Shown: positions 1 to 45,145 of the stretch, in pieces
How the letters are laid out: every line of letters starts with the position of its first letter
Numbering within the stretch: position 1 is the stretch's first letter
NCBI GenBank assembly: GCA_036172245.1
Contig: JAYWIR010000004.1
Span: 1-64,000, forward strand
Length of the DNA: 64,000 bases
Source of the DNA: Raillietiella orientalis
Lineage: Eukaryota
Direction of reading: 5' to 3'
Program-made: the position numbers and the translations under genes
Notes under the pieces: model-generated
What the model was told of the DNA's origin: nothing
Seen by the model: the letters and a program-made list of their open reading frames with translations, nothing else
Databases searched by the model: none

Positions 1-1234
1 CCGGCAGCGTTCGGCAACATCGAGAACGCGTTCGACAACGACGCTGCACTCTTTAATAATCGCGCTACCCTGCTCTTTCTTCTTCTGTTGGTAGGCGATT
101 TTCTTTTCCATCCTCCTCTCCTTCTTTGATTTTTTGGCAGTTGCAACTTGCCACCCAGTCTCCTGGCCGGCTCCCTCAACTTTTACGGCGTTGGTCGTCG
201 GTGTCTCGGGTGCTTCATGGGTCTGGGGCGCAAGTGGCACAGCCTTCGCCGCAGCTTTCGCCGCCAGCCTTTTCCGCAGAAGCCGGGCGCGTTTTTTAAG
301 GTTTTTCTTGGAAACCACCCGCACTGCTGCTATTGGGCACACCTCCTTCGTGTGGCCCATTGTGCGGCATGCTAGGCACTGCACATTGGGACACCTCCTT
401 TAGAGGTGGCCCGAAGAATTGCAGAAGCCACAGTATTTCGGCTTCCCCACATGCCAGAGGTCGACGGTTTCGCCTTCGACCACCAGTTTGTGGGGAAGAG
501 TGCAGCCCTTCCGAACGTTCACGCGCGCAGCAGTGAGGCCGTGTTGCAGCCTTGTGTAGTTTTCGAAAGGTCTAACTTTCGTCCACTCCGCGTGGACCGT
601 TCCAAACTGTTCCAAAGCGGCGCGAACCTGTTGTTTGCGCATTCGCGCGGTCACGCCTAACAGGTGGACCACCATGATGCGGTCCGCCGTAGTGGGGAGG
701 AGCCTCCGCGTCCCCATCATAACGGGGGTTTTAAGCAGTCGTTGGGCCAGCTCTTCATGTTTGCAGGTGACCTCAACGTACTGACCCCCGCTGCGGATGG
801 TCATAGCGCTAAGCTCCTCCTCTTTCACATCGAGAGCGCGCATGCCCTTCGAGAAGGCGCGCGCGCTCTCTAAAGAATATAAATTGCCTACCTTGTAGAA
901 CAATGAGGGGTTGTACCCCTAATCCACATAGGCCGACAATTCCGCCGCGGCTGCAGGCGATGGCGCCGACACAACGGCGCTCCACGCCCGCGCTGCAGCG
1001 GGGACCGATTCTGTGGGGGCGGACGCCCCCACCTTCATCGCCTCTGGGGGCGACGTTGCCGTCGCCCCCTGGCTCTCCATCGCCTCTGGGGGCGGCGTTG
1101 CCGCTGCCCCCTTGCCATTCCTGGTGGTCGCGTCAGGCATCGCTGTTTGATCGACCACCGAACCACACGACGCTTGCACTGGGGCAGACTTCCTGGCACG
1201 AGCAGCACCGAGAAAACACGTCCACCCTGGAGCG
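1..1234 (-). mobile_element. L1/Tx1-like non-LTR retrotransposon, family A: 5' end and ORF1 (runs off the window; disrupted)
   Basis: ORF 400..903 ...LPHKLVVEGETVDLWHVGKPKYCGFCNSSGHL (zinc knuckle); closely similar to ORF1 copies at 12957-14575 and 16737-18257; 42-nt tandem duplication near 1036-1110. Confidence 0.85.
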
Positions 1235-3368
1235 CACAAGGCGTTCGACTGTGTTGACCAGGATATCCTCTTGGAGCTCCTGGGTCGCATGAGCTTCTTA
1301 CCCTCCTTGATTAACTACCTGCGCTCTTGCTGGCGGAACAGGATAATCTCGATTACTTTCAGTGGACAAAAGTTGTATGGCGTGCCGGTGCGGCGGGAAA
1401 TAAGGCAGGGCGACAGCTTCAGCCCCCTGCTTTTTGGCACCTACGCTGATTTGGTGCTGAGAGCGTACAGGGTGACTTTGACCCCCTTGCCGTGCTCGTG
1501 CCCCGGCACGCCAGCCGTAGCAGCGTATGCCGACGATCTTCTGCCCCTCTTACCTATGTCCACTCCGGCGAAGGCGGTCGGAGATTTCTTTGATTTGCTT
1601 AGCCGTGAAGCCGGATTACAGGTTAACAGGGCGAAGTCGTCAGTGCTGCAAGTTGGAGCGACGTAGGCAGGGAAGCAGTAATGGGTCCGTCTGGGTATCC
1701 CCACGGTGAGGTGCATCAAGTACCTCGGTGTGCCGTTGGGGGACTTCTCCCTTGCGGGAGCGTGGTCCAGCTGCCTCCAAAAAGTCGAGACGGTGATCGG
1801 CCCGTTTCTGGAAAGGCAGTTTCACTTGCCGGAACGCGCCGCGGTTTGGAACGCCTTCGCGGCCCCCATCATTCGCCCCTTGCTTTTTGTTGCCCCTCCC
1901 CCGTTGAATCCTAAAAGCAGAACAAGGACCTCCTCCGCAAATCTCTTTGGGGCAAGAAAAGGCCTTAACTCCCTTGGAAGGACTTGTGCGCTCCGCACAA
2001 GTCCTTCCAAGATTGTCGGCCTCCGGGACGGCGGTCTCAGCATCCTGACGCTGGAGCGCGTGGAAATCTAGCTGCGATGGCGGACCCTCGCCATCGCAGC
2101 AAAGATGTAGAACACCGCTTGGTGCATTCAACACCGCCTCCTGGCCAGGCGTGTGTCCCGCTGCGAAGAACTCGCAGCGTTTCTTCTGTGCCCTGTCCGG
2201 AAGATTCGAAGATGCGGTCTACTGCTCGGCCGCATGGCAACCCTGGCAAAGGAGAACGACTGGATGGTTTGTGGCCCTGCCAACTCCTCCGCTTGGCTTA
2301 AAGAGACTGCTGGCACCTGGGCCAAGCAGAACCAGAGGTGCGAAGACCGGATGAACTGCCTGCGAGTCTGCTCTTACGCCCGCCGAACTCTTCGTGAAAT
2401 TCTTGAATTTCCACCGTATTGCAAGTGGGTGGATGGCACACCCCTTGTTACGGCGATGCCCTTCCTCTAAAGGGCGCTTTACGAAAGCCGGAAGCCAAGG
2501 TGGCAAGTCTGCTGACGTATCGGAGGCAGAGTGAAGATGATGAGCGGCTGGACCATGGGAGAGTTGACAGATGCAACGACCCTAGTCTCCAGCCGCGTGG
2601 ATTAAGAATATGGGGCGAGCTGCTGGGCATACGATTGGATGAACTGAAGAGGCCCCCGGTTCTACTTAAATCCAGGATTCTTTCCCTGAAGTGGCAAGAA
2701 TCAACGTTTCTGTTGCTGCCTTGGGGTCTACCCTGCAACGCGCGCCGCTTCCACTGGACGCGGGGAAGAGTAAATCCTGCGTGTGCCAGGTGTGGGAGAA
2801 GGAGTCGTTCCCCCACCTCTTAGTTGAATGCCCTGCCGTCCAGATTCTTTGGGATCGTTTTAAAAGGGCCCTCCGGATACCGAATGGTGGCATTGTTGGA
2901 TGTGTCTTCAGTCTTGTCTTCGTGCGAGGCGCCCTCAATCCAACCGCAGCCCTGGCAGCACTTTGCTGCATTCGTGGTATTGTGGCGGCCTGGACTGATG
3001 CCGAAGATGAAGACTGCATCGTGAAAGACGTTATCGAGCATGACTTTGGCTTCCTGCAGAGAGCTACCCGATGGCCCCATCTAGGAAAACTGAAAATGGA
3101 ATTAGAAGGCATCCTGCAATGGATGGGCGCTCCCAGTAGTTTTCCGTGATCCTTTCCCGGACCTCCAAACTTTTTTTGTGGTTTGTTTTTCTCTTTAATT
3201 GTGTTTTTGTTTTCTCCCCCATACCCTTCCTCTGCCGAGGAGAGCCAAACCGGGCTGCGTCTCGGTGTCCCGGCAGTTCCGGTATTGCGTGGCCGTGAGT
3301 GGGGCTTTGTACCACGTTCTGTATTGACTGTTGAAATGTGTTTAATAAACGTCCCGGCGTATCCGGGT
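1235..3368 (+). mobile_element. Family B ORF2 3' half (RT to C-terminal Cys motif) plus 3' UTR; pseudogenised
   Basis: HKAFDCVDQ, IRQGDSFSPLLF, AYADD, KYLG, C..C..ESFPHLLVEC across frameshifted ORFs; ends in the terminal hairpin 3344-3368; resembles ORF2 at 23622-27221. Confidence 0.9.
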
Positions 3369-5970
3369 GGCATCGCCGAAACCTGGAGGAAGTTGATGGA
3401 GGGGACACTGGTCACAGAACTCTCGGACTGGGCGTTTTATTTTGCCCCATTCAGCGAGAGTCTGCAGTTCGCAAGTACGGAAGTATGCGCGCAGATGTTC
3501 GCGCGCTCCTGCGATTCACAACCAGTCTCCCGGCTGGCGCCACGCTTCGGAAGGTGGACGTCGGTCGCGCGGATGGATGTTGATCACTAGCCGAGCGTGA
3601 TCGGACAGATCCGACTCAATTGCACCTCGAGTTCCCACCCGCGTACACAAGTGGTTATGAAGGAACACGTGGTCGATTCTGCTTCTCAACACGGCTTCAT
3701 CGGCCAACAAGTTGCGTATGTGCATAGCCGCACACAACTCGTTGACCAATTGTGCTCTTATGTGGGGCGCTCCCGAGAGCAGTCGGACGTTGAAGTCTCC
3801 CGCTATCAGATGCGACCGCCGCACGCCTGCTTCGGCCAGCCAGTCTCGCCGCAGGGCTTCGAAGAACGCAGTGCGTTCTGCGTGCCTGTGGCTGGTGCAG
3901 GGCGCGTACACGTTCGTCACTACGAGGTCGATCGATTCGGATTACTCGAGGAGAAATTGTCCGACTCGACCTTCCTCGTCGAAGTGTGCACTGCGCACCG
4001 CATTGGCGACAGCCCGCTTCAGCAGGAAGGCCACTCCGCGGGAGTGGTCTCCTCCTCTACGATAAAGTAGCCTCCCCACTGTGAGCCTCTCGATTTTCTG
4101 GACGTCCTCTGCTCTGAGGGCATGCACCTCTTGGAGAAGTGCCAGATCGAAAGGTCGCAGGGTGTCGGCCACGCTACGCCTTCTGCTCCCGTTGCGCAGC
4201 TTGTTGACATTCCAACAGTCTATACTCAGTTGCCGGCAAGAGGCGATTCCACCCATCATGCAAATGATGGTGGTAGCGTGTGCATTGCCGCCTCCAGTTC
4301 GGGAGGCGGCTGGTCGTTGTCCATCTGCGGTGGTGGCGTTCCGGCCACGACCGGAACGTCTACAGACGGACTCAGGTCGATAGGAAGGACCGACCGGATT
4401 CTGTCGATGGAGGGATTCCGCGACCTCGCGGACATCGCCTCCTCGCTATCCGAGCGCATCTCCTCCACTTCAGCCTGAGGGGGAGCGACGCGCATAGGGT
4501 TGCGCGACTTCCGGCCCGCCTTCCTCTTCGGAAGGGCGACGGTGGGAGGGTTTCCGGCTTCTGCCTCGGACCCGGAAGTTTCCGGGCACTTAACTTCCGC
4601 CGGACGTCTGACGGCCTTCTTTGCAACCTTAGGCGGCTGCATTAAGGTGGCCGCGAGTTCCTCCGCCGCCTTCGCGAAGTTTTTCTCCTCGCTGCTGCTC
4701 GCGTGTTTATCGCAGGATTCCTGCGGCGGTTCCGCGGCGTTCGCGACGGTTGCGGGAGTCGTTTTCGCCGATCGACGCTCGATCGATTGAACGCGCTCGA
4801 TTGTAACGGTGCATTTCTTTAAAGACTCGCGCGGCGAAATTTTTGGTTTGCCGACCGCGGGTTTCTTGGGAACGCTCGCATTCTGATTTGTATTATTATT
4901 TTTTTTTGGAGTTTTTGTTTTTTTTTGCGTTTCGTTTGTTTTTTGTTCGACACGACTTTCCAGTTTTCCTCGTCGGCAGTTGGCTAAGAAGTCTCCTTTT
5001 GAGGCTCCTGCTCCTTGTGGACGACTTCTTCTTAGGTCGGCTGTTGGTCGCTCGTTTTTTTGTTTTCTGCCTTCTTCCCTCATTTGTCGAAGGGTCTGAA
5101 GGCGTCGTCGCGGCGTTTTTCGGGCACACAGCAATAGTGTGGCCCTTCGCGCCGCAGGTTGGGCATGTAGCATCCGGGCATCTCTTTTTAAGATGCCCGA
5201 ATGTGTTGCACAGCCCACAGTATTTTTCCTTCTCCACTTACCAGAGGTCGACGAGCTCGTCGTTGACCTCCAGCTTGTGGGGAAGTTCTTTGTTTTCGCG
5301 GAGAGTTACGCGTGCGGCCACTCGCCCACTGAATGCGCCTCGATAAGTAAAGGCGTTGGGCTTCGACCACATCGCGTATATCTCCGCGAACTTGTTGATT
5401 TCAGTGCGGATGGCTTCATCGGTCATCCGCATCGTTGTACCAGTGAGGTGGATCACCATAGAGTGTTTCACCGAGTGTGGGAAAAGATTTGCCCTTCGAA
5501 CGTAACGGGCGTGCATAGCAGTTTGTGTGTGAGCGCTGCATCTCTGCAGATCAGCTCCGCGAACTGCCCGCCGCTCCGAATCGAGAAGCAAAGAATCTCC
5601 TCGTCAGAAATTCCCATCCTACGTATGGCGTTTCTAAATCTCCGCATTGTAAGCGGAGAATATAAGTTTCCTACCTTGTAAAGGAGGGCAAGGTTGTAGC
5701 CCTCCTTTATGTAGGCCTGCACTTCGGCGGCCACGTCCGGCGGAGTCGCCGCGGCCACCTTGTTCCACGCCCTCGCCGGGGTGGCGGGGGCTTTTTTTGT
5801 GGTGGGGCATGATCCCACCTCTATAGGTTGGGTAGACGTTGGCCTCACGTCTCCCGTCGCAGCTACTGCGGCGTCTTCAGGCATTTCTGCCTTTCAACGG
5901 CCGCACTTCCAATCCACCCAACAACTAGTCTTGGCTTCGCTCACGGGAGCTGACCAAAAACGCGTGGGGC
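3369..5970 (-). mobile_element. Family E 5' half: ORF1 (5884-4256, frameshifted) and APE endonuclease (4259-3369)
   Basis: CGLCNTFGHLKKRC-CPTCGAKGHTIAVC knuckles; WNVNKL, LQEVH, NVYAP, GDFN, IDH, SDH endonuclease motifs. Confidence 0.9.
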
Positions 5971-8780
5971 ACCGATGCAGGTTTGCTGCATTTTGCGGGA
6001 TTCGTACTCCTCTCTTTACGCCAATAGACCACCAGAGCGACCTTTTGCGCAGCGTCTGCAGCCAGAAGGTGCTTTCGCGTTAATGGAGGACGAACGTCAC
6101 ACCTTCCAAGTGGAATTTACGATGGGGGAGATTGTTTCCGCCATCAAGAATCAAAAAAATAAGGAAGCATCAGAGAGAAACGGCCTGCTAGCTGAAGTTT
6201 ATTAACACTTTGCGGCAGAGTTGGCTCCCATGGTGCTCAATTTACGTTTGCTGATCCGTTAACGCGGCGATGCCCCCAACTCGTTCCAAGCAGCTATAGT
6301 ACGTCTCCTTTCTAAAGGAGGAGACTTGCGCAACGTTGGCAACTGGCGTCCTATCACTGTGGTCAATGTGGACGCGAAGATGCTTACCAAACTCTGGGTT
6401 TAGCGTTTGGGACGGGTAGCGGAATCCGTGGTCAGTCCGGAACAGACATACGCTGTTCCCGGACGAACCATGGAGGCCAACCTGTTCCTCTCCAGCACCT
6501 TTTGGCAGTTCGAACAGCGCAAGGCTAAGCTAGGTCTGGAGAGTCCTGGACTCTTCAATGACCGGGGGAAGGGAAGCCGAGGGAATGATGCGGCGCCCGA
6601 AGCCCTTGCGGTCGCAGTCGATTTGCGTAAAGCTTTCGAATGCGTCGACCAGGTGCTGCTCCTGGAGCTCCTGGAACGCTTGGGATTTCCGACCGTCTTC
6701 CTGGCGTACCTGCGCTCTTGCTGGCGCTTCGCGGTAATTACCATTAATTTCAGCGGCCGGCACGTGTACGGCGTGCCGGTTCGTCGCGACATCCAGCAGG
6801 GTGACAGCTGTGCCCTCTGCTCTTCAGCATCTACCTTGAGTTGGTGCTGAGAGCACACAGGGAGACTTTGGCAACCCTGCCGAGCTCATGTCTCGACACG
6901 CCTGCCATGTCAGGCTATGCCGACGATTTTCTGCATCTGCTTCCCGAATCCACCCCGGCATCGGCGCTTGAAGATTCCTTTGAGTTGCTGAACCGTGGGA
7001 CGGGCTTCGACGTAAACAGGGCATAGTCGTCAATTGTTTTTCCAAAATCGTCGCAAGCAGGACGGTCGGAATGGATCCTCTTGGGGATCCCCACGAACAG
7101 GTACATCAAGAACCTTGGCGTTCCGTTGGGGGACTTCTGCTCTGCAGAAGCCTTGTCCAAACGTTTACAAAAGGTGGAGCTGGCGATCGGCCCGTTCCGG
7201 GACGGCAAGTTTCACTTGCAGGAACGGGCCACTGTATGGAACGCTTTCGCGGCCCCCCTTCTTCGCTTTCTACTTTTTGTGTGCCCTACCCCGTGTCAAA
7301 TTAGGACACGGACTAGGGGCCTTATACGGAAAGCCCTCTGGGGTAACCGGAGGCCCCGCGTCCGGCTCAAAGACTTGTGCGCTCCACACAGGGACGGTGG
7401 ACTTGGTCTCCTGACGTTCAAGCGCATGAAGCGACAGCTCCACTTCAGGAAACTTGCCCTTGTGGCAAAGTTTTGCACAGCACCCTGGTGTGCACCCGCA
7501 AGACTCTTTGCTCACAGCGCAACCGGCTGCTTCGAATTGACTTTAATCCTGGTAGCCAATCAACACAGCCTGAAACATTGTGGTTATCAGTTGCGGGATT
7601 TGGTTGCCCTGATGAGAGACAACCCTTGGATCTCCTGCATCCCAGCGGACTGGACTACCATGCATCAGGAGTCCGTTTCCGCATGGGCGAAGATCAATGG
7701 CACCAGCGATGAGGACTTCTCCTGCCTCCCCAGAGGGAGGCACGCTGGTCAGCCACTCCAGGAGATCGTTTCCAACCCACGGAAACTTCTGTGGTCTTTC
7801 TTCACCCACCTTGCCCCAGTGCTGCTCTCCCTCAGGAAAGTTCGGGACAGCCGCCAGAACGCATCGTGGGAAGTGTCCTGCTTCATCGGAGGCAGAAAAA
7901 AATCACTGAAGGCGTGGACGCCGAAGGAGCTTGCGGACGCTACTACCTCGAGTGTCCCGTCGAACACAATTGTACGTTGGGGCGTGCTGCTCGGCATACC
8001 TCCGGAGCAGGTGAAGTGGCCTTCAGCGTCATGGGACAACGGCACCCTTCCCCTGCATTGGCAGGAGACGGCGTTGCTTCTGCTCCACTGGGGACTTTGA
8101 AGCAGAGCACGCCTGTCTCGCTGGACATCGGGGAATGTGGATGCTAGTTGTGCAGAGTGTGGGGAAAGGGAGACCTTCCCTCACTTGATTCTGGAGTTTG
8201 TTGCGCTCCGCGAAATGTGGGACAGACTCTCGTCGATCCTCGACATTCCGGAGGGTGACCCGAAAAACTTATTCCGATGCCTCCTGACGCGAGACGGCTT
8301 GCCAGCATCCGGGAGCGTAGCAGTGCTTTGCTGCATACGCGGTATCCTGAAGTAGTGGACCGCGTCTAGGAGAGGAAGGACCAGCCGGAATGCGATCCAT
8401 CGGGCAGCCATCTCCCTGGAGAAAGCGTGCCGTTGGCGCCCACTTCGAAAACATTTGCCGGCGCTTGTTCGCATCCCAAACCGGATGCAAAGGCCTGCTC
8501 ACGGCGCACCGTGCTCCCCTTCCTCCCACCCACTCCTTAAGAAACATTGCCTTCCATACGGTTTTCTATTTGTTGTTTTATTTCAATTTATCAGCCACTG
8601 CGCCAATGTGAAGGTCCTTTGCGGCCTACGGGTCGGTAAGGACAAGTACCACTGAACGTTTTTGAACTTCTAGACATCCTGAAGAGGAAATAAGATTTTT
8701 GGTGAAAAAATTCAGACTTTGTTATGGAATTTTTTGAAATCTCAAAAAATTTAATAATAAAAGCCTCTGGTTACCCGGGT
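5970..8780 (+). mobile_element. Family F ORF2 from the post-endonuclease linker to the 3' end; pseudogenised
   Basis: YSSLYA, SPEQTYAVPGR, DLRKAFECVDQ, GYADD, CAECGERETFPHL; degenerate terminal hairpin 8756-8780. Confidence 0.88.
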
Positions 8781-10660
8781 TAAATACCCCGTCGGGTTTC
8801 GTTGAGACTTCGCGTTGCTTTGCGGGGAGCATTGCCTGGCTGCCTACTTTCGATCGGCCGGCACACGCTTTTCAACGAGTTGTCCTCCTCTCGGTGATCG
8901 GAACGGCATCCATTTCAGAGTCCGACCGACGCATGTTCGATCGGATTTCGGCCTTCCTCCAAGTAGTGAAAGGTTTTGCTGGATTGACGGCTGTCCTGTT
9001 GTTATTTTCCGTCACCAGTGCATCGCCTTTGGTGACGGCTACTTTCCCTGCGCGCGCGTTTTCAGCGTGCTCATGCGCAGTTGCACCAGGGACCTTTGCT
9101 GAAGTCTTCTTTACTTAATTACGGTTCTTCACTTCACGTGGCGCCGTAAATGAAGATTGTCCTCCATTGCCATCTTTGAAGCCATCCGCGTCTTTGGACG
9201 GGAGCACTTCCGATGGCTCCGACACGCTCGTCATAGGCGCTGCCTTCGTAAGGGCTTTCAATCCCTTCGTTGGCATGGCATCAGCGCCAGTCGAGAGCTT
9301 GCCCTCCGACTGCGACGGCGTGAGAGGTTTCTCCGCTTGCGCAGTGTTGGACCGCGAAGCGGATTTTAGTTTTCAGACTTTCAAAGTCGACACGGCAAAA
9401 CCCTTCTTACCCGATTTGCGCTTCTCAGCCACTGCAGGAGGTGAAGGAATGGATCTGACGGTACTGGAAGTGTCGATACCGCCGTTGTCCATTGGCGACC
9501 CCGCAGGCTGCTCGAACTCCGAGAGAGCCGAGCGTGCTTGGGAAGGACCGCTATGTCGCCCAGGAGCCCTTACCATTGCCCCGAATTATCCGCAAACTTT
9601 TTTTTGCGGCTCCCCTGTCGCGAGGGGGTGCGCGCAGGGCTTCGCGTGCGAGGCTTCCTGCTGCTTTGGGGCGACATTCCGCCTCGCGTTTTTACGGAAT
9701 TTCTGCCGTGGGTTCTCCGGGTTTTGCAAGGATTTTTTCTTCCCTTCCGCGCTTTGTTTCTTAAGATGGAGCTTTGCGGCTGCCTTTTTTCGCAAAAGAT
9801 CCAAGCAATTTTTCAATTGGTGGACGAAAAGATTGCAATAACGGCATTTTCTGGAGGGGCATTTATCCAAACAAGGCCCCTCCTTCCCGCATTGCTCGCA
9901 CGTTCTTACTTTGCCCACGAACCACAGGTGAACGACCATGTCTTTCACTTGTAGTTTGGTGGGCAGCAGACGGCGGTCCGGCATTGTAAGCCGGACTCCA
10001 GCGACTCCGCTGTGTATGGACGGGAAGTTCTTGAGGTTGCTACGCACCCTCCACAGCGCATGGACCGTGGCGGATTTTGCCAACGCGTTCCGAATATCAA
10101 TGTCGGAGATTTCCGACTCAATGTCGAAAATCTCCGCCACGAATGAGTCGTCCATGGCAGCCGGGAAGACCTTCTGGCCACGGATCGACAACGGGGTGCG
10201 CAGCAAGCGTTGCACAAGTGCAGCGTCTTTGCAACGCACCTTGAAATAGCCCATGTCTTTTACGGGCATAATGGCGAGAAGGTCCTCCTCCCGCACGCCA
10301 ACACGGGTCAGTTCATCGTTGAACTGATTCCCGTCGCGCGCAGAAAGAAAACCACTCACCTTATATCGGAGAGCAGGTCTATAGCCTTGGGCTACGTATG
10401 CCCGCAACTCCGACTCGTCGAGAGGTTTCCCTTTGACGGCTGCTGTGGCAGCAACGTCAGCAAAACTCCTCTCCATTGGCGAGGCAGACGAAGAGGAGGC
10501 GGCCGTCGGTTCCGCGATTGCAGATCCGGACGCTATACCTCCAATTTTAGTAGCTTCGGATTAGGTTGACATTTTCGTCAAAATGCACGACACGAGGATG
10601 GAGCGATTAAAAGCCCGGAGACGAGAGCGAAGAGAAAAATGTTGTCACTCGGTTGAAGTT
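8781..10660 (-). mobile_element. Family D 5' end and ORF1, 3'-truncated
   Basis: ORF 9586..10476 with LPTKLQVKDMVVHLWFVGKVRTCEQC.. and CRYCNLFVHQLKNC, homologous to the other ORF1s. Confidence 0.8.
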
Positions 10661-10664
10661 TTTC

Positions 10665-16365: not shown

Positions 16366-16568
16366 TCCAGATTATTTTATTTTGGTTTCTTTGTGTTTCG
16401 CGCCCCCCCACACCGTTCAAGAAACTGTTACTCTGGCCTGCGTTCCAGCAATATTCTCTTCATTCTTGTTCAGTCGTCGGTTGGGAGTTTGGTTCCCAAC
16501 TGGTTTATTTTGTATAATTGCTTTTTTTGGTTATGTTATATGGAATAAACGCCCCGGCGTGACCGGGT
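16366..16568 (+). mobile_element. Short 3' UTR fragment, inverted copy of about 14759-14955
   Basis: Near-identical reverse complement by eye; terminal hairpin 16544-16568. Confidence 0.8.
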
Positions 16569-18257: not shown

Positions 18258-18796
18258 TTACGTCCGCGCTGCAGTGGGGACGTTAAAGTCCCCGGCGATG
18301 AGGTGCGCCCTTCGCATGTCTGCTTCGGCCAGCCAATCTCGCCGCAGGCCTTCGAAGAACGCAGTGCGTTCCCCGCGCCTGTGGCTCGTGCCGGGCGCGT
18401 ACACGTTGGTCACGACGAGGTCGATCACGTCGGTCCACTTGGCAACAAGCTGCCCGATTTGACCTTCCCCGTCGAAGTGCACGTCGCGCAGCGCATTAAC
18501 GACGGCTGGCTTCAGCATGAAAGCCACACCGCGGGTGCGGTCTCTCCCGTTTTGGTATACGAGCCGCCCGCCTGCGATCCGTTCGATTTCCTGGGCCTCC
18601 CCTGCGTGGAGCACGTGCGTCTCCTGCAGAAGCGCCAGGTCGAAGTCCCGCAGGCTGGCGGCCGCTTCTCTCCTCTTGCCGTCGTCGCGCAACCCGTTGA
18701 CGTTCCAACAGATTACGCGCAGTCGCCGGCAGGAGGAGAGTCCACGCGTTGGTGTGTTTATTGTGCTTGCTTACCGTCCTCCGCCTGCTGTTTGCC
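18258..18796 (-). mobile_element. Family E-like ORF1 tail and endonuclease fragment; close duplicate of about 27835-28352
   Basis: LQETH, NVYAP, AGDFN; high nucleotide similarity to the 27.8-28.3 kb segment. Confidence 0.85.
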
Positions 18797-21780: not shown

Positions 21781-21871
21781 CGAGTGGACGTGTGTTTCCT
21801 TCGCTCCCGAGTGAGTCGACAGGAAGCGGTTTTTTGTTGTGTTGTTTAGTGTGGAACATCGTTGGTGTCCG

Positions 21872-27221: not shown

Positions 27222-27421
27222 TCCCTTCCCTGCCCTCCAACTTCTTTTTGTTTGTTTCGTTTTATTTTACTTTTTGTCTCATCCCCATCCCCCTTCGCTG
27301 TCGGGGAGTGCCACGCCGGGCTGCGTCCCGGTGTTCCGACAGGTCCTGTGTTTACGGCCGTGGTGGGGCCTTGTACCACGCATGTGAAGTTTATCAATAA
27401 ACGCCCCGGGCGTACCCGGGT

Positions 27422-32816: not shown

Positions 32817-32819
32817 AAT

Positions 32820-35564: not shown

Positions 35565-36425
35565 GTGAACGCGGACCACCTGCTTCTGTTTCTTCGGTGC
35601 TACGTTGGTTATCTTTTTAGCCTCCTTCTTCTGGGGCTTTTTCTTTTCTACCTTTTGCCAACCTTCCTCGTACTCGGCGTCCCCTCCAGCTGGTGCTGCG
35701 CTGCAGGATGTTTGAGCATCGGGTTGGTTGGCGGGGCAGGACTTTACCAGTTCCTGGCTTTTGTCCTGTTTCCTCGCCGTCTCTTCCTTACGTGCGCCTA
35801 CCGGAACGGACCTTTTCCTGTTGGTGAAAAGGGGCACATCAGGCGGATGTGCCCCTTTTCACCGCAGCCAATACACACGATGTTTGGGCATTTACTCTTC
35901 AGCTGCCCCGACACCTGCCAAAGCGGCAGCACACGGGTTTCCCCACATACCATACATCGATCTCCTCCTGCCCGACCTGTGGCCTGTGAGGTAGCCCACC
36001 CTCGGCCCAGACCGTCACGAGCGCAGCGGCGTATCCACTGAATGACCTGGTGTAACCCAGGACATTGGGTTTTCCCCACAACGCGTGGACCGTACCGAAC
36101 TTTTCCAAGGATTTGCGTACTGCGTTCTTCGCCATCCTCATTGTAATTCCGGTGAGGTGGACAACGATCGAATTGTCCGCCCTGAACGGGAAGATCCTTC
36201 TCCCGTTCACGGTCACCGGCAGGCGGAGCAGCTGTCAAGCCATCCCTGCAGTCCTGCAGTTCAGCTCAAGCAGCTGCCCGCCACTTCTTACGGAAAGCCC
36301 TGGACTTCTTCCTCCGGGACTTTCAACTTTTTGAATTCCACGGCGAAGGACCGCAAGACCGCGGGGGAATACAGGCCACTTACCTTATATAACAAGGCCG
36401 GGTTATACCTGTCGGCCATGTAAGC
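35565..36425 (-). mobile_element. ORF1 fragment most similar to family B ORF1
   Basis: SIVVHLTGITMRM, DVWYVGKP, CIGCGEKGHIRLMC. Confidence 0.8.
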
Positions 36426-37035
36426 CACATCGCGAAAACGCTGGCGAATTTTTCAAGTTCAGTGCGGATGGCGTTTGCATCCATCCGCAGCGTTCCCGGT
36501 AAGGTGGACCACAATGGAATGGCCCTCCGTGTGCGGAAGTAAATTCCGGCCTTCGAATTGTACGGGCGTATAGAGCATTTGTGCGTAAGAGCTGCATATT
36601 TCCTGATGAGCTCCGCCAGATTCCCTACGCTCCGTATTGATGAACACAGGATCTCATGGTCGGCAATGCCCATCCTTTTGACTGCATTGCCGAACTTTCG
36701 CGCCCTTCGAGGGGAATATAAGTTTCCTACCTTCTACAGGAGGGCCGGATTGTAGCCCTTCTGGATGTAGGATTGTATTTCCGCGGCGACATCGCGCGTT
36801 TCCGCCGCTGCCACCGCGCTCCAGGCCCTCGCCGTAGTGGCGGGGGGAGGTTGAGTGGTTGTGGTGGGGCGTGATCCCACCTCCGCAGGCTTGGGGGACG
36901 TGGTCTTCCCGCCTGTCTCACCTCAAACTGCGGCGTTCACAGGTATTTCTGCCTGCCAACGGCCGTGAACCGCACACGAAACAACAGAAAAAACTTCCTA
37001 TGCACGGAGCGCACAATTGCGGCCGACGTTGTCCG
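36426..37035 (-). mobile_element. Family E-like 5' end and ORF1 N-terminal fragment; paralogous to about 29410-30020
   Basis: MGIADHEILC, EGRNLLPHT..SIVVHLTG. Confidence 0.8.
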
Positions 37036-37169
37036 CGCGGCAAGCGCTACTACTACTCGTACGCGGAGCCCACTGAACGCAGCCTCTCCGACCTCCGGTG
37101 ATCGTCGAGGAACACATGGTTCCGCAAAGCACGCATCCTGGGATCGTCGACCAGCAAATTCGAGGCGTG

Positions 37170-38404
37170 CACGGACGCGCACACCTCGTTCACCAGCCGC
37201 TTCTCCCGGAGACGCTGTCTCCTTCGATGGCGTGTGGACGTTGAAGTCCCCGGCTACGAGGTGAGCCACTTCGGGGCCGGAATTGCTGAGCCAGCAGACG
37301 CGCAGGCTCTCGAAAAACTCGAGTTTCTCGATGTGACGCGCGGAGCCGCACGGCGCGTACACGTTCGTGACGACAAGGTCGATTTATTGGGACCACTTGA
37401 GAACAAGTTGGCCCACTCCACCTTCCTCATCCAAACAAGCTCTCAGCACCGCCCCGCCACCCTGCCTCGGACAAGGAACGCTACTCCGTAGGTAGTCTGG
37501 GAGCGTCACCTCCAAAGGAGCATCCCGCCTGCGCGATCTTCCAGATCAACCGCTTGCTGTTCGGAAAGAGCGTGAATCTCCTGCAACAAGTCCAGATCGA
37601 AGTCGCGCATAACCTTAGCAACCAATCGCCTCTTCTCGTTATCCTCAAGCCCGTTGACTTTCCAACAGGCCACTCGGAAGTTACGAGAACATGCGAGCCC
37701 GCGCATTATTGCTGCGGACATGGAGGTGCGTTCCTCCCCACGTCCGACGAGGCATCAGCCGGAAGCCCGTCGGATAGAGGAGCGCAAGCGCACCCTGTCT
37801 CCGCCGCGCCGCACGCGGCTGGCTCGGTGGAGTGGAGGACCATTGCCTCGGGCTCCGAGGAGCACCGGGACCCGTTACCGGCATCAGGCTCTTGCCTGGA
37901 AGGTTTCGGCTTGCGCGCAGCCCTGGATTGACCCGGGGCTTGGCGAGCCCATGCGCTGCCCACGGACACCACCTCGGAGTCTAAATTCCACGCGAGCGGC
38001 AGGCGTTTTTCCTGCCGTTTCTTCGGCTGGTAGCTCGGAGTTATACCAGCACTCGCACATGGCGCCTTCGGCGGCGATCCCCCTTTCGGGGTCGCGGCGT
38101 CGGCAGCTCCCCTCTCACCGCGGGTGACAGCGACGGCGCGCGCGGCGGCAGCAGAGGATTTTTCGTGCGCCTTTCTTGCCGCGCGGGACAGCCTCTTTAC
38201 CCAGCGTACCTTGATGATGGGGAAATGTCAAGGATCGCGAGGTTTGCGCTGCTTCTTGCCCCCAACGAAAGTCCAGCCATCCTCGCCGCTTTCCGGTTCG
38301 CCTCATCTATGCGCGAGGGCCTCGCGGGTCCTCTTCATCCTCTCCAAGGCCTCCGGTGCGGCGATGCCGGCCAGTTTGTCCGTCGCCACATCTGCCGAGG
38401 CCAG
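37170..38404 (-). mobile_element. ORF1 tail and endonuclease fragment of a further family
   Basis: ACWKVNGL..LQEIH, YAP, AGDFN; TAATG 37704-37708. Confidence 0.75.
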
Positions 38405-39659: not shown

Positions 39660-40366
39660 CTACTGCAAAGGGACTCCTTCGGTGGGGAGAAGAACTTGGT
39701 GACTCCGGGGGACTTGCGTCTGCGAACTGCGTTCGGTGCGGGATGACGGAGTCCATCCCGCACCTACTTCTGGACTGCGGTGTTCTACGAGGACCCTGGC
39801 GGAGGCTGGCAACAGCAATCTTGCATCCCATGGACACCGCAAGAGACTTGCTCCGACGATACTTCACGCCAACCGGGCTATCTTCAAGCGCAAGGATTGC
39901 AACCATCGGTTGCGTACGCGCAAGTTTCAGTCCGTCAGGCGCTGGTATTCAACGGGCAGCACCAAGAGGTAGTTGGCAAAGCATCCTCCTACATGCAATC
40001 GGTAGCCAGATGGCCTCATTTGACAGAGACAAGGGAACTATGCGGCATACAGCACTGCAGCGACCTACCCGGTGATCCTTGCCCCACACTCCATGATTTT
40101 TTTTTTTTGCCCACTTCCGTCCCCTTAGTCTCCGGAACATTCTAGGTGCTCTCTATATGAATCCCCTGAGTACAGAGCCTCACCAAAGACCCGTCACTAT
40201 TCCCTCCCGTTTGTTTGTTTTCTTATTTCCTACTCCTACCATGTTGCGAGCGGTTTGTTTACCAGGCCTACGTGCAGGTAACTCCCTATGTTCTCTGTAG
40301 TTGCGCTGGTTGGGGACATGGTTCCTGACCGGTTTATTTTAAATAAACGGCCCGGCGTGACCGGGT
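39660..40366 (+). mobile_element. Family C ORF2 C-terminus plus 3' UTR
   Basis: CVRCGMTESIPHLLLDC; similar to the reverse complement of 10665-11535; terminal hairpin 40342-40366. Confidence 0.85.
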
Positions 40367-41050
40367 GATAAACTTCAATCTAGTGTGGACGTGTTTTTCC
40401 GTCGCTCTCGTCTCTAGGCTGTCATCCGCTTCATCTTGGTGTCGTGCATTCCGACGACGATGTCGACCCAACGAGAAGCTACTGATGTTGGAGGACCAGC
40501 GTGAGGATCTGCAACCGCGGAACCGACGGCCGCCTCGTCTTCGTCTGCCTCGCCAGCGGCGAGTAGCTTTGCGGACATTTCTGCAGCTGCAGCCGTCAAA
40601 GGAGGATCCCTAGACGAGGCGAAGTTGCGAGCTTACGTAGCCCAGGGCTATAGCCCCGCACTCCGTTATCAGATGAGTGGGTTTCTTTCTACTCGCGACG
40701 GGGGTCAATTCAACGACGAATTGACCCACATAGGCGTGCGGGAGGAAGACCTGAAAGAGCTCCTGCTCTTCGTGCGGAACGCCATGCAACCAGCCGCAGT
40801 CCTAGCAGCATTTAGAGGAACATTCGGAAGGACCTGGCCAGGGTCCTCAATAGGATGCACCCGCCTTCAGCTGGCGGTGATCCCTTTCCTTCCCTCCGAA
40901 GCCTTTTTATTTATTTATTTTTTTATTTTTCTTTTCTTTCTTTTCCCATTTCCCTTCGCTACCGAGTTGAGTTCCGTCGGTCTGCATACCGACGACCTGG
41001 CAGGCCAGATGTTATGTTAGCCGTAATGGGGCCTTGTACAACAAATGTAT
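40367..41050 (+). mobile_element. Family D 5' end/ORF1 start (to about 40755) fused to an ORF2 tail/3' UTR fragment
   Basis: RAYVAQGYSPALRYQMSGFLSTRDG matches the 9586..10476 ORF; GTGATCCCTTTCC 3' UTR motif near 40877. Confidence 0.75.
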
Positions 41051-41075
41051 AGATGAGTGATGTATAGAATAGTAA

Positions 41076-41388
41076 CCACATTTGCAAAATACCTATACCT
41101 CAAGCAAGGAGCCATTTATTTACAGAATTGCAAGAAAGCTGATGTTACCCAGTTGTACAATTGGGAATCCATCATCGTCATGGACCTTATACGTGACAAT
41201 AGAGAGTGCAGTACGTGTTCATCAAAAGCCTCAAGAACGGAATAATATTTGAACCGAAGTACCAAGGATCCATGGAGTGTGTTCAGACACCGGACGTTAT
41301 CGTCATGGCTAACTGGGACCCTGACTACCAAAAGATGTCTTCCGATAGATGGAAACTCATCAACATCACTTCCTCCAACAGAAAATAA
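41076..41388 (+). pseudogene. rep: CRESS virus Rep helicase C-terminal fragment (unit 1)
   Basis: FAKYLYLKQGAIY, LKNGIIFEPKY, IVMANWDPD..SSDRW. Confidence 0.85.
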
Positions 41389-41439
41389 ACCTTCACTGTT
41401 GACGCTGATGACATCACCCTTTGTTAAAACAAACACAAG

Positions 41440-41830
41440 TCCTAATAAAGACTAATTCCTCCAGCCTTCCTTCATTGTCTAAATTGTCGCATGTTTCCCC
41501 TAAACAACCAATACCTCCCATGAATTCCATACATAGGAGTTCCTCGAACCAATCTACCCTTACTTGGACACACACCAGACTGACACCTTCCCTTAAAATC
41601 ATCAGGAATATCTTGACCAAGACATGTGCTTCATTATATAAAATGCCCGCACATTGTCCGCAAAGACAACTCTTCGCTCCTTCTAGTCTCCACCCAGATA
41701 GAACGAATGGCCTGTTCGCTCTTTCCGTTCTCATACTCTAACTTCCTATGCAAACAGCACGGCCAATAATAACTTATTCCCTTCACACCAAAGTATCTCC
41801 TCGACACTGCTTCTTTCTCATTATAAAACT
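41440..41830 (-). pseudogene. Diverged CRESS capsid C-terminal fragment (unit 1)
   Basis: RRYFGVKGISYY..RSIWVET aligns by eye with ARYFGVRGIRVY..RCPWIDS of the 42524..43450 capsid. Confidence 0.55.
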
Positions 41831-41852
41831 TGATAATAAATAATAACTGAAT

Positions 41853-42512
41853 AATCACACTACCTTCTACTCGAAAAACATTAATTTTGTAAAAGAATGC
41901 TTCCGATTCGCCAGAAGCAGGGCACACCCGAACCCCTTGGCCAAATTACAACCTAAAAGTTGGCAGATGGACATCCTAAAAATTATACGACTAAAACCCG
42001 AGTTACGCAAAATATATTGGTACTATGACCCTGTTGGAGGAACTGGCAAGACAACCATGGCCAAATTCCTGTACTTGAAAAAGGGCGCCATTTACATGCA
42101 TTCATGTAAAAAAGCCGACGCTGCCCATATATATAATGGAGAAAGAATAATCATTGTAGACCTCACCCGTGACAATCAAGAACACGTCCAGTACGGGTTC
42201 ATCGAAACACTCAAGAACGGAATCATCTTCGATTCCAAATACCAAGGATCCATAAAGTATTTCCAACCTCCCCACATCATATGCTTCAGTAACTGGGAGC
42301 CGAATTACAAGATGTCTAGTGATAGGTGGATTGTCAGAAATATTTCCAAGTCCGATGCAGCTCGACTCACAGATTGCATGATGGACGAAGGTGTCATTCT
42401 CCCTTGCGCTTGCGCTTCACGCCCTAGTACAGCGCAAGCCCACGACTCGCCTGACTCCTCCTCTCCCACATTGTCACCGTCCTCCCCCTTTTTTTATGAA
42501 ATACAAGATTAA
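41853..42512 (+). pseudogene. rep: CRESS Rep C-terminal half (SF3 helicase), open frame (unit 2)
   Basis: Walker A WYYDPVGGTGKTT, Walker B IIVDL, LKNG..SKY, motif C HIICFSN, SSDRW. Confidence 0.92.
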
Positions 42513-42523
42513 ATATATTTTCT

Positions 42524-43450
42524 CTATTTATATAATCTAACATCCTTCAAGTGCTTGAACTGGATATAGTACGTTCTCGTTATCCTATAGATTGGATAAC
42601 CTTTTTTCAAGCGACCGTCCTTTGGACATACGCCGGACTGACAAGCCTCCTTCAAATCGTCTGGTATATCCACTCCAGACATGTGCTTCAACACATGCAC
42701 ACGATTAAAATGTACGTAACTTTTCGTTTCAGGATCCAGGTTTACTCCTTGAGAACTATCAATCCAAGGGCAACGAACAAAACGAAATAATTGACCTCCG
42801 TATGTTTGCACAGTCTTTCGCAAATAAGCTCGCGAATACACACGAATACCTCGAACACCAAAGTATCGAGCAAAACAACCAGAAGTCTCTCCGTGACCAG
42901 ATATCGTATCCTCTAGTTTGATATACGGCATTCCTGCCAAATTCTCAAAATACTCTCCCTGGTTCGCCGACTGATACAGCAACACATTTCGATACGACAC
43001 CTTCATTCCGAACTCCTCCCCCATGTTTCCTATTGTCAGACCTAAAGACATCGGTTCTATCTTCATAGCACATCCCTTCACTCTAACATATCGATAGAAC
43101 TTCGCGAAAACATCCAAATTAGCTATTCGCAAAAGATCTTCCACCGACATCACGGTTTCGTCATACGTGAACATCCAAGAACAATTAACATGGTCTCCAT
43201 CAGCAGTCCTCAACGAACTGTAATGGACCGCATCTGCCAAAACATCCCGAGCTACCACACGCGTTGTACGAGACAACTTATAGCGAGGTGAACAATACAA
43301 CTTCGCACGGCGACGACGAACATTCCAACGACGACGGCGCTTTAACGTACTATATCCCCCTCTTCGACGAGACAAACGACGATGCTTCACCAAGAACGAT
43401 GATCCTGCACGCTTCCTCTTCCGAGAGCGAGCAGCGCGAGGTGATGTCAT
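42524..43450 (-). CDS. cap: CRESS virus capsid protein, intact 308-aa ORF (unit 2)
   Basis: Extremely Arg/Lys-rich N-terminus; ambisense to Rep; adjacent to an origin hairpin; homologous to four other decayed copies. Confidence 0.85.
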   Translation of the reverse strand: MTSPRAARSRKRKRAGSSFLVKHRRLSRRRGGYSTLKRRRRWNVRRRRAKLYCSPRYKLSRTTRVVARDVLADAVHYSSLRTADGDHVNCSWMFTYDETVMSVEDLLRIANLDVFAKFYRYVRVKGCAMKIEPMSLGLTIGNMGEEFGMKVSYRNVLLYQSANQGEYFENLAGMPYIKLEDTISGHGETSGCFARYFGVRGIRVYSRAYLRKTVQTYGGQLFRFVRCPWIDSSQGVNLDPETKSYVHFNRVHVLKHMSGVDIPDDLKEACQSGVCPKDGRLKKGYPIYRITRTYYIQFKHLKDVRLYK

Positions 43451-43696
43451 TCCGCTGCTTGACAGCGTACTGGCGACCTACACTAACCCCCCTCCCTTTT
43501 TCAAGTCCGCTGGTGGGACATGCCCACCCGACTTTATCAGCCTTCCACGAGGTCGGGTTACGCCACGCACTACCCGCGTGGACAGCAACAGCTTGTTCCG
43601 CATTCCTAATTCTTCCACGATTGCGGACATCAACCAGCTACTAAAAATATCCACTTACAACATATCGGAATTTCCCAAGGTTTTACGTTGCCAGCG

Positions 43697-43735
43697 AAAT
43701 GCAATCTGGGTAATACTATTTACCAGATTGCATTT
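43697..43735 (-). promoter_or_regulatory. Rolling-circle origin stem-loop with nonanucleotide TAGTATTAC
   Basis: 13-bp perfect stem AAATGCAATCTGG/CCAGATTGCATTT; loop contains GTAATACTA (43710-43718); TATAAAT at 43753-43759 upstream of Rep. Confidence 0.93.
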
Positions 43736-43819
43736 TATGCGTAGTTACGCAGTATAAATACAAACTACACACAACATTAACCTAGTGCTACTTACACAGA
43801 ATTACAGTGAACATACAAG

Positions 43820-44086
43820 ATGCCTTACGCACTCTTCTTCAATTGGTGTTTCACACTATGCAATTTCTCCGAAGACGAACTCAAGAATATCAAAGATTGG
43901 TGCAGATGCAACTGCTACTTCGCATGCATCGGCAAAGAAACAGCATCTACAGGAACACCGCACCTACAGGGCTACTTCCAACTAAAAGAGGCTAGAACGT
44001 TACCAGGACTCAAACGCAAAACCTTCCGGAAGTGCCACCTCGAGAAAGCTCGAGGATCATCACGGAGCAACTTAAGGTACTGCACA
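43820..44086 (+). pseudogene. rep: CRESS Rep N-terminal HUH endonuclease half (unit 2), truncated at motif III
   Basis: WCFTLCNF, TPHLQGY, NLRYCT. Confidence 0.92.
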
Positions 44087-44134
44087 AACTCTTGCATTAT
44101 CTTACCATAATAGAAATAAAATGGTCCCTTAATT

Positions 44135-44392
44135 TGCAAAGACCATGTAGGAAGACAGGCCTCTAGGAGGCTGTCGGCAACGTGGAAATGGGTTGATGGT
44201 GACCAGAAGATTTCCTTGAGTGAAGTAATTATTGATGCAACTCAGAGCAAAAAAGTGGTTTCGACAATCCGGAATCTCCAGCGGGAGTCCGCATGGCTTT
44301 CCCTCATTAATAAGCATCCCGACCAGGGGAAAGCCACATTTAGTCACGCTCAACCACCTGATGTGCAAAACCATCCTTCCAATTACGTTTAG
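44135..44392 (+). mobile_element. Fragment of an RLE-type non-LTR retrotransposon (Utopia/NeSL-like), post-RT region
   Basis: My translation: ..ASRRLSATWKW...WLSLINKHPDQGKA..HPSNY, resembling the ASRRL...KPDQGK...SNHF region I recall for Utopia/NeSL proteins. Confidence 0.5.
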
Positions 44393-44502
44393 ATGCTACC
44401 CGCTTCAGTAAATGAAATCTGTTTTTTCCAAATCCAAGCATGCTCATCCTGACTACAGTCTTATTACATCAGTTCACTTCATAATGATGGTTTTTGTTTT
44501 CG

Positions 44503-45140
44503 AATAAACGTCCCGGCGCAAACTGGTAAGGAACGATCACGCAGCACGGACGTGCGCTGTTGTGGATCTCTGAGCGTGTTTTTAGTTTGCCTGCACTGCC
44601 GGTTCTGCCTTGCATCGGCGAGAAATTTTGCCTCGGTCGTCAACGCCGAGGCAGCCAACGGAGCACCCCACAATGCAGAGCTGCGGGCATATGTAGTTCT
44701 AGGCTACAAGTCCGCTCTCTGCTGCACGGTCAGTGCCTTGAGAACGAATGGAGTGGGTGACAAACGCCGCGACGAGCTTGACGGCATCAGGGTGCGGGAG
44801 GATGACCATCTGGCTGTGATGCCCGTAAGTGCACTTGGACATTAGGAGGTGCACTGCAAAAAAGCAGCTCTCGTCTAGCGCCTGCTACGCACCCCGCTGA
44901 ACATCCGCGGGAAAATCGTCCCCTCGGCCATGGACCAGTCGTTCTTTGTCCAATTATCCGCCATCCGTGCGAAAACTTCCGATCGCGAGCTCCTGAGCGC
45001 GCTGGGGGCATTCGCTACGGTGCACGCTCTGTGAAGAATAGCAAACCTAATCAAAAGGATCGCATCCCTCCACAGCGAACTCGCGACGGCGCGAATCATC
45101 AGGGCGGACCGGTGGCTCTTGTCTTCGGAGCTCAACTACG
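44503..45140 (+). mobile_element. Terminal hairpin followed by a degenerate family D-like 5' end/ORF1
   Basis: ELRAYVVLGYKSAL, VREDDHLAVMPV, RLLRTPLNIRGK similar to ORF 9586..10476. Confidence 0.75.
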
Positions 45141-45145
45141 AGGTT

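Follow-up and report, generated by a model that had tools for sequence, protein, structure and literature searches.

It is known that target-specific long interspersed elements (LINEs) use rRNA, small nuclear RNA (snRNA) and transfer RNA (tRNA) genes, microsatellites, telomeres, DNA transposons and long terminal repeat (LTR) elements as safe havens, and that the cleavage consensus of human L1, TTTT/A, is loose and its 3' end is poly(A). Within the Tx1 clade, Tx1 inserts into the piggyBac-type Tx1D, Tx1-Mar into Mariner-N4_AMi and Tx1-9_AMi into Harbinger, Tx1-8_Crp and Tx1-4_AMi target LTR retrotransposons, Keno targets U2 snRNA genes, Kibi and Koshi target microsatellites, and tandem and sequential insertions at one site have been described (PMC4494074). 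Elements of the L1-Tx1 type are widespread in molluscs (PMC10294476). Nested arrays are described for Cnl1 of Cryptococcus, a LINE-1-like element that prefers its existing copies, most of the arrayed copies being 5'-truncated (PMC9942834), and for Zepp of Coccomyxa/Chlorella, whose GC-rich clusters of nested copies reach ~42 kb and form local GC peaks (PMC3446292), while tandem arrays of R1 arise by double insertion at one rDNA site (PMC5932611). Here we describe a stretch of 64,000 nucleotides (called the window) from Raillietiella orientalis, positions 1 to 64,000 of contig JAYWIR010000004.1 (assembly GCA_036172245.1), of which a large part is a GC-rich island of LINE pieces. We consider it likely that this island grew by recursive nesting of sequence-specific LINEs of the L1 superfamily (Tx1-like). 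Sequence comparison supports separate insertion events in which several lineages entered others at fixed nucleotides. What would be new is that LINE lineages appear to target each other's coding sequence; target-specific behaviour of the Tx1 type is already known.

About 21 pieces, A to S, form a continuous mosaic that fills 1 to ~40.8 kb (40765), and two further small LINE pieces lie at 44.48-45.15 kb. GC content in the window is 56–63% over 1 to ~38 kb and goes down to 32–39% past 52 kb. A tblastn search with open reading frames (ORFs) 1 and 2 of the full-length copy L gave 36 high-scoring segment pairs tiling 25-45145 on both strands, in which the ORF2 of the other pieces is 30–69% identical to that of L at the protein level, and self-BLAST of the window gave 58 pairs; 37.8-39.7 kb is only weakly recognisable, the minus strand still resembling a low-complexity ORF1 tail. 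The initial annotation, made from the letters alone, had seen about 41 kb free of host DNA, and from 1 to ~40.8 kb there is indeed LINE sequence only; its range, to 45140, also takes in 41.0-44.4 kb, where a Rep-like repeat stands in place of LINE sequence. The pieces bearing a reverse transcriptase (RT), namely B, D, F, H, K, L, N and O, are pairwise 66–75% identical in DNA, and because this divergence accrued under purifying selection (the ratio of nonsynonymous to synonymous substitution, dN/dS, is 0.23–0.32 for K against D, O, L and N) they make up at least seven RT lineages. Over 1-40.8 kb nested copies are densely packed and little else is present, as in Cnl1/Zepp-type arrays; ZeppL of Chlamydomonas reportedly belongs with the Zepp clusters. 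The pieces are as follows (aa, amino acid).

1 to 1234, minus strand: A, 5' part of an A-family element with ORF1 aa 22-380 (tblastn), extending beyond the window edge; 5' motif GTGGACGTGTTTT at 1213-1225; its 5' end at 1234 meets the host B exactly before HKAFD.
1235 to 3373, plus strand: B, L-like, ORF2 aa 584 to the 3' end, hairpin 3353-3367, tail 3368-3373; hosts A and is inserted in C.
3374 to 5926, minus strand: C, M-like, 5' end to ORF2 aa ~315, cut by B at PGFG; 5' boundary ± ~25 nt.
5927 to 8785, plus strand: D, K-like, ~26 codons upstream of YSSLYA to the 3' end; degenerate hairpin ending at 8779, tail 8780-8785; dN/dS 0.32 against K.
8786 to 10659, minus strand: E, 5' part (5' end, ORF1) of an E/S/T-family element, its 5' end 5 nt past the F tail.
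10660 to 12861, minus strand: F, F/R-family, ORF2 aa 584 to the 3' end, tail 10660-10665; cut by G exactly before HKAFY.
12862 to 14753, plus strand: G, A-family, 5' end to ORF2 'EI', where it is cut by H.
14754 to 16371, minus strand: H, H-family, 5'-truncated at ORF2 aa ~789; hairpin 14760-14775, tail 14754-14759.
16372 to 16573, plus strand: H', 202-bp H-family 3' fragment, head-to-head with H; hairpin 16552-16567, tail 16568-16573.
16574 to 18281, minus strand: I, A-family, ORF1 aa ~55 to ORF2 'EI', cut by H' at the same nucleotide as in G.
18282 to 18791, minus strand: J, M-family piece of 510 bp that begins 66 nt before the conserved start of ORF2 and stops at GDFNV; 94% identity and dN/dS 1.5 against M.
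18792 to 21775, minus strand: K, 3' part (ORF2 aa ~308 to the 3' end) of the host split by L; hairpin 18798-18813, tail 18792-18797, target-site duplication copy 21766-21775; dN/dS 0.23 against N.
21776 to 27426, plus strand: L, full-length LINE of 5651 bp; hairpin 27404-27420, tail 27421-27426.
27427 to 29978, minus strand: M, 5' part (5' end, ORF1, ORF2 to PGFG) of the host split by L; target-site duplication copy 27427-27436; 5' boundary ± ~25 nt.
29979 to 32821, plus strand: N, ~22 codons upstream of YSSLYA to the 3' end; hairpin 32801-32815, tail 32816-32821.
32822 to 35569, plus strand: O, starting immediately past the N tail, 12 codons upstream of YSSLYA, and running to the 3' end; hairpin 35549-35563, tail 35564-35569.
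35570 to 36990, minus strand: P, M-like 5' part (ORF1, 5' end), cut inside ORF1 by the 3' end of O.
36991 to 37103, plus strand: N', short N-like piece at the 5' end of P, arranged like N at M.
37104 to 38300, minus strand: Q, divergent LINE, ORF2 aa ~217 back to aa 7, plus a stretch like the ORF1 tail.
39699 to 40371, plus strand: R, F/R-family 3' fragment; hairpin 40351-40365, tail 40366-40371.
40372 to 40765, plus strand: S, E/S/T-family 5' end and ORF1 start, 5 nt past the R tail.
44480 to 44532, plus strand: N-like 3' terminus, AATAAACGT, with degenerate hairpin and tail TAAGGA, within Rep-like sequence; 5' limit undefined.
44540 to 45150, plus strand: T, E/S/T-family 5' end-like motif and ORF1 fragment, ~10-30 nt past the preceding tail.

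L is the sole copy with both frames open. In a stop-to-stop ORF scan of the plus strand its ORF1 spans 21815-23476 (553 codons) and its ORF2, in a different frame and starting ~100 nt past the ORF1 stop, spans 23574-27221 (1215 codons). Pfam finds Exo_endo_phos at aa 32-237 of ORF2 (E 5.5e-11, 43.1 bits, cut-off 24.5) together with RVT_1 (E 2.3e-22, 80.2 bits, cut-off 29.6), while in ORF1 zf-CCHC scores 20.6 bits, just short of its cut-off (20.8), without a match to any further Pfam family. The closest solved protein to ORF2 is human L1 ORF2p (E 8.5e-52 over aa 353-750; R2, 7e-16), and its endonuclease domain matches the human L1 endonuclease (1vyb) with E 1e-5; the best database protein relatives are at most 32% identical, and the Atlas yields just generic RT/endonuclease clusters. 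These comparisons support the assignment of the pieces to LINEs of the L1 superfamily with an apurinic/apyrimidinic-type endonuclease (APE) and an RT. The label Tx1-like marks them as candidate members of the Tx1 clade, with which they seem to share sequence-specific insertion.

The termini are well defined. The 3' ends carry AATAAA(C/T)G, a hairpin CCCGG-loop-CCGGG with a stem of 5-6 bp and then 6 nt of the form TGNNAA (ten real cases); with at most two mismatches AATAAACGNCCCGG has 11 matches against 1.43 expected, a count that none of 100 shuffles reaches, and one of the 11 (13757) is an internal chance match. No poly(A) or simple-repeat tail occurs at any terminus, the tail being directly joined to target sequence. 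Public sequence was checked in one DNA run, consisting of short contigs, where 24% of the sampled words of the window were present; among the public runs listed for these words there was no RNA run. In this run two contigs match G to 14753 and go on with 13 in-frame letters like the uninterrupted endonuclease of J, and TGGCAA is absent from the uninterrupted M at the point where K adjoins J, the 94% copy of M; thus the terminal TGNNAA belongs to the insert and not to the host. The 5-bp stem is present in most minimum-energy folds with z-scores of only -0.1 to -1.15, and the stems are invariant, so there is no covariation; support for the hairpin lies in conservation at the termini, not in thermodynamics. 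On inspection, no pairing between the RNA 3' tail and the target was evident. The 5' ends of A, G, L and S carry GTGGACGTGT after 8-9 variable bases (an 8-nt leader in L), and the 5'-truncated copies include H, H' (202 bp), R and I. By alignment, A (~1040-1090) has ~42 extra bases in the 5' untranslated region relative to G (12981-13017), and a public contig shows a 37-base joint that goes back from 13017 to 12981; this region of the A-family seems to vary by short tandem duplication.

A strong contrast between insert and host is seen at RT motif A, DL/HKAFD, where the initial annotation had noticed two termini. The junctions 1234/1235 (A in B) and 12861/12862 (G in F) fall at the identical nucleotide, directly before CACAAGGCG, which codes for HKAF. 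Three copies in the window have CACAAGGCGTTC at the motif A site and two of them are occupied, while none of the four copies with other sequence is. On the insert side A and G are 92.5% identical over 1158 aligned nt, on the host side B and F are 63.2% identical over 750, and deeper into the hosts there is no real alignment; dN/dS is 0.98 (neutral) for A against G and 0.29 for B against F. A and G are two insertions of one young family into two different lineages. It could be supposed instead that a few nested insertions were copied as composite blocks by segmental or inverted duplication and that the junctions were inherited, since four pairs of segments align colinearly through junctions (1235-4696 with 25323-28754, 10280-11372 with 40752-39699, 13049-14957 with 18281-16372, and 29412-30092 with 36425-37094) and J reproduces part of M at 94% identity, having diverged neutrally. 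Equal divergence of insert and host, which the initial annotation had named as the sign of such duplication, is however not found here, where identity falls from 92.5% to 63.2% precisely at the junction, although it is approached at the B–C/L–M and F–E/R–S pairs.

Three termini had also been placed at PGFG in the region after the endonuclease, and this is borne out (3373/3374, 27426/27427 and 21775/21776), with the refinement that the exact break lies after GGCG and is accompanied by a 10-bp duplication. The exact 10-mer GGTTTCGGCG stands on both sides of L (21766-21775 and 27427-27436), and the K and M flanks, when joined, read in one frame as LPPGFG/GGLR; because the flanks join in frame with a duplicate 10-mer, M and K are the two parts of a single full-length element (M+K) into which L inserted with a 10-bp target-site duplication, a nested event preserved whole. 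The nucleotide of PGFG at which B interrupts C is the same. The dN/dS is 0.37 for B against L, and for C against M 0.36 in the endonuclease and 0.21 in ORF1. Since both sides have thus diverged under selection and the frames of L are open, B–C and L–M are not decayed duplicates of one another, which again speaks against copied blocks. The PGFG region of L itself (24474-24530, plus strand) is two bases off the occupied M+K site near the cut, GGATTCGGCGAGGG compared with GGTTTCGGCGGAGGG; this difference may or may not serve as self-protection from its own family.

A further fixed site lies in endonuclease codons, EI/ER. H in G (14753/14754) and H' in I (16573/16574) break the same host nucleotide, after GAGAT, so that the 'EIS' terminus of the initial annotation was rightly counted twice, but its S belongs to the insert tail. 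The inserts H and H' differ at 8 of 202 sites (96% identity) and the hosts G and I at 171 of 1702 (90%), a contrast with Fisher p = 0.003, or p = 0.009 without CpG transitions. Moreover, the A-family copies A, G and I are related as a star, their private differences numbering 34, 38 and 41; with no derived changes shared by G and I relative to A, these two are not sister duplicates. Two public contigs carry the uninterrupted EI/ER site, and one bridges G–H (14724-15102). The surroundings of this site form an inverted repeat of 1.9 kb with 90% identity (arms 13049-14957 and 16372-18281, around 16371/16372), each arm consisting of an A-family 5' part and the last ~200 bp of the H-family, and the asymmetric centre being the body of H. 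This structure could come from a fold-back event, as duplication would have it for G+H and H'+I, or from two insertions plus rearrangement. Fold-back duplication of G+H is disfavoured by the 8/202 and 171/1702 differences, and double priming at a break was rejected for the H–H' joint, as the right flank is an inverted copy of the left and not its continuation.

Two other junction classes are looser. The 5' ends of C, M and P meet D, N and N' at ~26, 22 and 20 codons upstream of YSSLYA (aa 376 of L), and the joint of the N tail with O lies at 12; the distances were read from alignments in which the 5' boundaries are uncertain by ~10-25 nt. Instead of four junctions at one site, as had been proposed for the YSSLYA linker, there is therefore a cluster 12-26 codons upstream. 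The M and P 5' ends are 87.7% identical and the adjoining N/N' host pieces 77.3% (p = 0.005), and with dN/dS 0.16 and dS 0.46 M and P are distinct lineages. A stack of an L-like in an M-like in a D/N-like element is present twice with all its components diverged under selection, and this recurrence suggests that the insertion specificities are stable over time. In addition, three 3' ends (10660, 40371 and 44532) lie just upstream of 5' ends of what the initial annotation called family D, as it had stated. ACTTC stands between the F tail and the 5' end of E, and likewise between the R tail and that of S, the N-like terminus precedes the 5' end-like motif of T by ~10-30 nt, and N–O and K–J are also tail-to-head. 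S against E gives dN/dS 0.35 and dS 0.49, and R against F dS 0.23 and dN/dS 0.78 on only 112 codons; thus the two sides of the F–E and R–S joints seem to have different histories.

With 17 events and an element of 5.65 kb, 0.012 same-nucleotide, same-orientation coincidences are expected, and the probability of at least three is 3e-7. This figure bears on the idea that the island is a transposon graveyard, heterochromatic or like a piRNA cluster, where elements accumulated regionally without specificity and shared positions are coincidental. The island is indeed dense and nested, stands beside four decayed Rep-like copies and has several single junctions without a shared site, but at least three coincidences are observed and a given lineage is always found at the same site, so we regard this explanation as extremely improbable. 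For the independence of the events, dN/dS is 0.16–0.37 in four of the five coding pairs, the exception being R against F (0.78), and equal neutral divergence is seen only for J against M. The initial annotation had the hosts more diverged than the inserts, which is true of three of five pairs (92.5/63.2, 96/90 and 87.7/77.3%), the other two being about equal. Its view that the targets are conserved coding motifs fits the several fixed sites inside lineages, but one class lies at 5' termini and three 3' junctions share no site, and mostly antisense insertion turns out to be a trend only, with opposite strands at 14 of the 20 joints between adjacent pieces (p = 0.12). Duplication, which would account for the about equal identity on both sides of B–C/L–M and F–E/R–S, is already contradicted for at least two junction classes, since the A–B/G–F pair drops at the junction, B–C/L–M as well as M/P and S/E (0.16 and 0.35) have diverged under selection, and H/H' are less diverged than G/I. 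We therefore think it unlikely as the origin of the array.

Several joints are of unusual form. C–D, M–N and P–N' resemble a 5'-inverted LINE, in that a minus-strand 5' end meets a plus-strand internal point, and I is joined in sense to J at 18281/18282, exactly after GDFNV, possibly by a template switch during reverse transcription. It could be argued from these that twin priming or template switching within single insertions made the head-to-head and tail-to-head joints, but the partner pieces are of different lineages (K against N, dS 1.3) and the breakpoints, expected to be random, recur; we assign this origin a very low probability. For M–N in particular twin priming was rejected, as M runs through L into K as far as a complete 3' end and is a full-length element, not an inverted segment.

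Among the pieces of the public run matched to the window, 32 of 164 are at least 99% alike and 132 of 164 are 95–99% alike, and its contigs also give a joint from 28808 to 18796. An assembly artefact, in which repeats were mis-joined at shared motifs to give chimeric junctions, would find favour in the relatedness of the repeats in the array, in the shortness of these contigs, none of which spans the stretch, and in the odd topology of the H–H' joint and the M+K flanks. Against it, the junctions fall at defined termini (hairpin and tail, 5' motif) and not in shared sequence, the 10-bp duplication around L is exact, and single contigs bridge G–H or show its empty site, which makes such an artefact most improbable. 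Summed contig depth is ~18-24 at 14668-16001 (H) and 24006-27340 (the 3' half of L) and ~1-8 over most other pieces, a hint only that the H and L lineages are the most abundant or the youngest, contig depth not being copy number.

A number of observations nevertheless weigh against a nest of sequence-specific insertions. There are two events per site only, all within one 64-kb window. The long-range order of the pieces rests on the assembly, as the public run consists of short contigs that are mostly 95–99% alike. Identity is about equal on both sides for B–C against L–M and for F–E against R–S (78% and 79.5% overall in the latter), and in both cases independence rests on dN/dS. In the contrast of H/H' with G/I the insert stretch has 42% GC and the host stretch 59%. 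The head-to-head joint of H with H' (16371/16372) lies between A-family arms in inverted orientation, where simple nesting fails and rearrangement could multiply junctions. The 3' junctions of K in J, D in E and O in P have no common site. The 3' end of M+K (18792) adjoins J in the sense orientation and its 5' end (29978) adjoins N in the antisense orientation; these flanks cannot be two halves of one target, so no single insertion explains them. The LINE pieces at 44.48-45.15 kb sit in Rep-like sequence that is not LINE. Finally, ORF2 of L (23574-24135) has no ATG before ~codon 187, so that 'intact' means an open frame only, and its translation would need reinitiation or a non-AUG start. From the odd joints, rearrangement has also acted, with at least two later rearrangements superimposed on the nesting. 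At the left end the nest is seen from its right half, with A in B, B in C, C in D and D in E, all antisense, which predicts mirror-image halves to the left of the window.

If sequence-specific nesting is nevertheless correct, we assume that the APE-type endonuclease of each lineage nicks a defined short sequence, which for several of them lies inside another lineage. RT motif A (DL/HKAFD) in L-like and F-type elements would be the target of the A-family, the PGFG codons in M/C-type elements that of the L-family, the EI/ER endonuclease codons in A-family elements that of the H-family, and the linker upstream of YSSLYA in N-type elements that of the M-type. Target-primed reverse transcription would then start from an RNA ending in the hairpin and TGNNAA, not in poly(A). 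For L the duplication and the position of the tail place the first nick on the host sense strand after GGCG and the second 10 bp off on the other strand. Each new copy would supply targets for other lineages, so that insertions pile up into a GC-rich island. We infer that the specificity comes from the endonuclease and not from RNA-DNA pairing or chromatin, and that this holds genome-wide; the length of the recognised sequence is inferred likewise. If the targeting of lineages holds across the genome, L-type tails would mostly precede a CGCCGAAACC-type flank. The initial annotation went further and had the families propagate by disabling each other. Disruption of host copies is seen, but a gain from it is speculation, and a safe-haven reading fits equally well. 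It is a tentative and rather doubtful proposal that the lineages form a closed network, in which the endonucleases evolved towards sequences that other lineages must conserve (motif A, endonuclease core, linker, 5' terminus), the evolved homing spares host genes and suppresses competitors, and specificities and targets co-evolve, the two-base difference in the PGFG region of L being a possible example. Were it true, each lineage would have a self-renewing target that cannot easily mutate away. Otherwise the homing would have arisen incidentally, from recognition sites that are short and GC-rich while the genome is AT-rich.

As for the surroundings, no Rfam family reaches the threshold in the 64 kb, and the window has five small tandem arrays of which none lies at a junction, nor are there microsatellites at junctions; the island was therefore not seeded on a known Tx1 target. 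To the right of it, four decayed Rep-like gene copies lie on the plus strand (41000-44400, 46300-47400, 48350-49420 and 50190-52160), ~67-70% identical, in a strongly C-skewed stretch of 45-47% GC. Pfam finds Viral_Rep in them (E 1e-13 and 2e-17) with an RNA_helicase-like P-loop, and all have stops or frame breaks; they look like endogenous sequences of circular Rep-encoding single-stranded (CRESS) DNA virus-like or related rolling-circle Rep origin. One unit is apparently interrupted by the LINE pieces at 44.48-45.15 kb. The sole clear host gene in the window is represented by two exons (55697-56644, minus strand) of a gene like that of ubiquitin-specific protease 30 (USP30; Pfam UCH), whose best named relatives are from bivalves, an annelid, a nemertean and cephalopods (31–54% identity); judged by these relatives alone, the host would probably be a spiralian invertebrate.

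Our literature search, which took in few subscription journals and no Repbase Reports, brought up no account of sister lineages of LINEs that home to one another at fixed positions in coding sequence. If this behaviour is real, the coding sequence of sister lineages would be a further haven for LINEs, one that exists in many copies, does no harm to the host and is conserved by selection acting on the target lineage itself, and compact GC-rich transposon islands in an AT-rich animal genome would be explained without chromatin-level targeting. Moreover, a set of close APE endonucleases with different, precisely mapped cut sites could provide material on how this fold reads DNA sequence.

Compared with human L1, the order of APE, RT and C-terminal Cys/His motif is the same as in ORF2p (PDB 8uw3, 8sxt, 8c8j; 1vyb), but the elements here end in a hairpin and TGNNAA and have defined GC-rich sites. 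The F–E, R–S and N–O joints resemble R1 dimers, which re-use a target regenerated by the target-site duplication (PMC5932611), whereas the spacers here are 0-5 nt (ACTTC twice) compared with a duplication of 33 nt in that account, and the members of a pair, which do not overlap, may or may not be of one family. As in Zepp, a GC-rich cluster of nested LINE copies is seen (PMC3446292); however, Zepp clusters occur one per chromosome and are thought to be centromeric, the part of that report cited here gives no fixed sites within the element, and the host here is animal-like. Cnl1 as described is one family inserting into itself, in tandem and near telomere repeats, whereas there are here at least seven lineages with mostly cross-lineage insertion: the paired inserts and hosts are of different lineages (e.g. 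63% identity, or dS 0.9–1.3), opposite strands meet at the 14 of 20 joints noted above, and the USP30-like host gene is 15 kb away. The nearest likeness is with the Tx1-clade LINEs, which are also APE-type and L1-related, have a strict or strong target preference and count transposons among their targets (PMC4494074). The targets found here are LINE sequences, outside the described Tx1 classes (snRNA, tRNA, 5S, microsatellites, DNA and LTR transposons). Unlike the Tx1 cases in the part of that work cited, they are LINEs of the same group, hit in coding sequence and at 5' termini, and they would form a chain in which H enters A, A enters L-like and F elements, L enters M, and M enters N.

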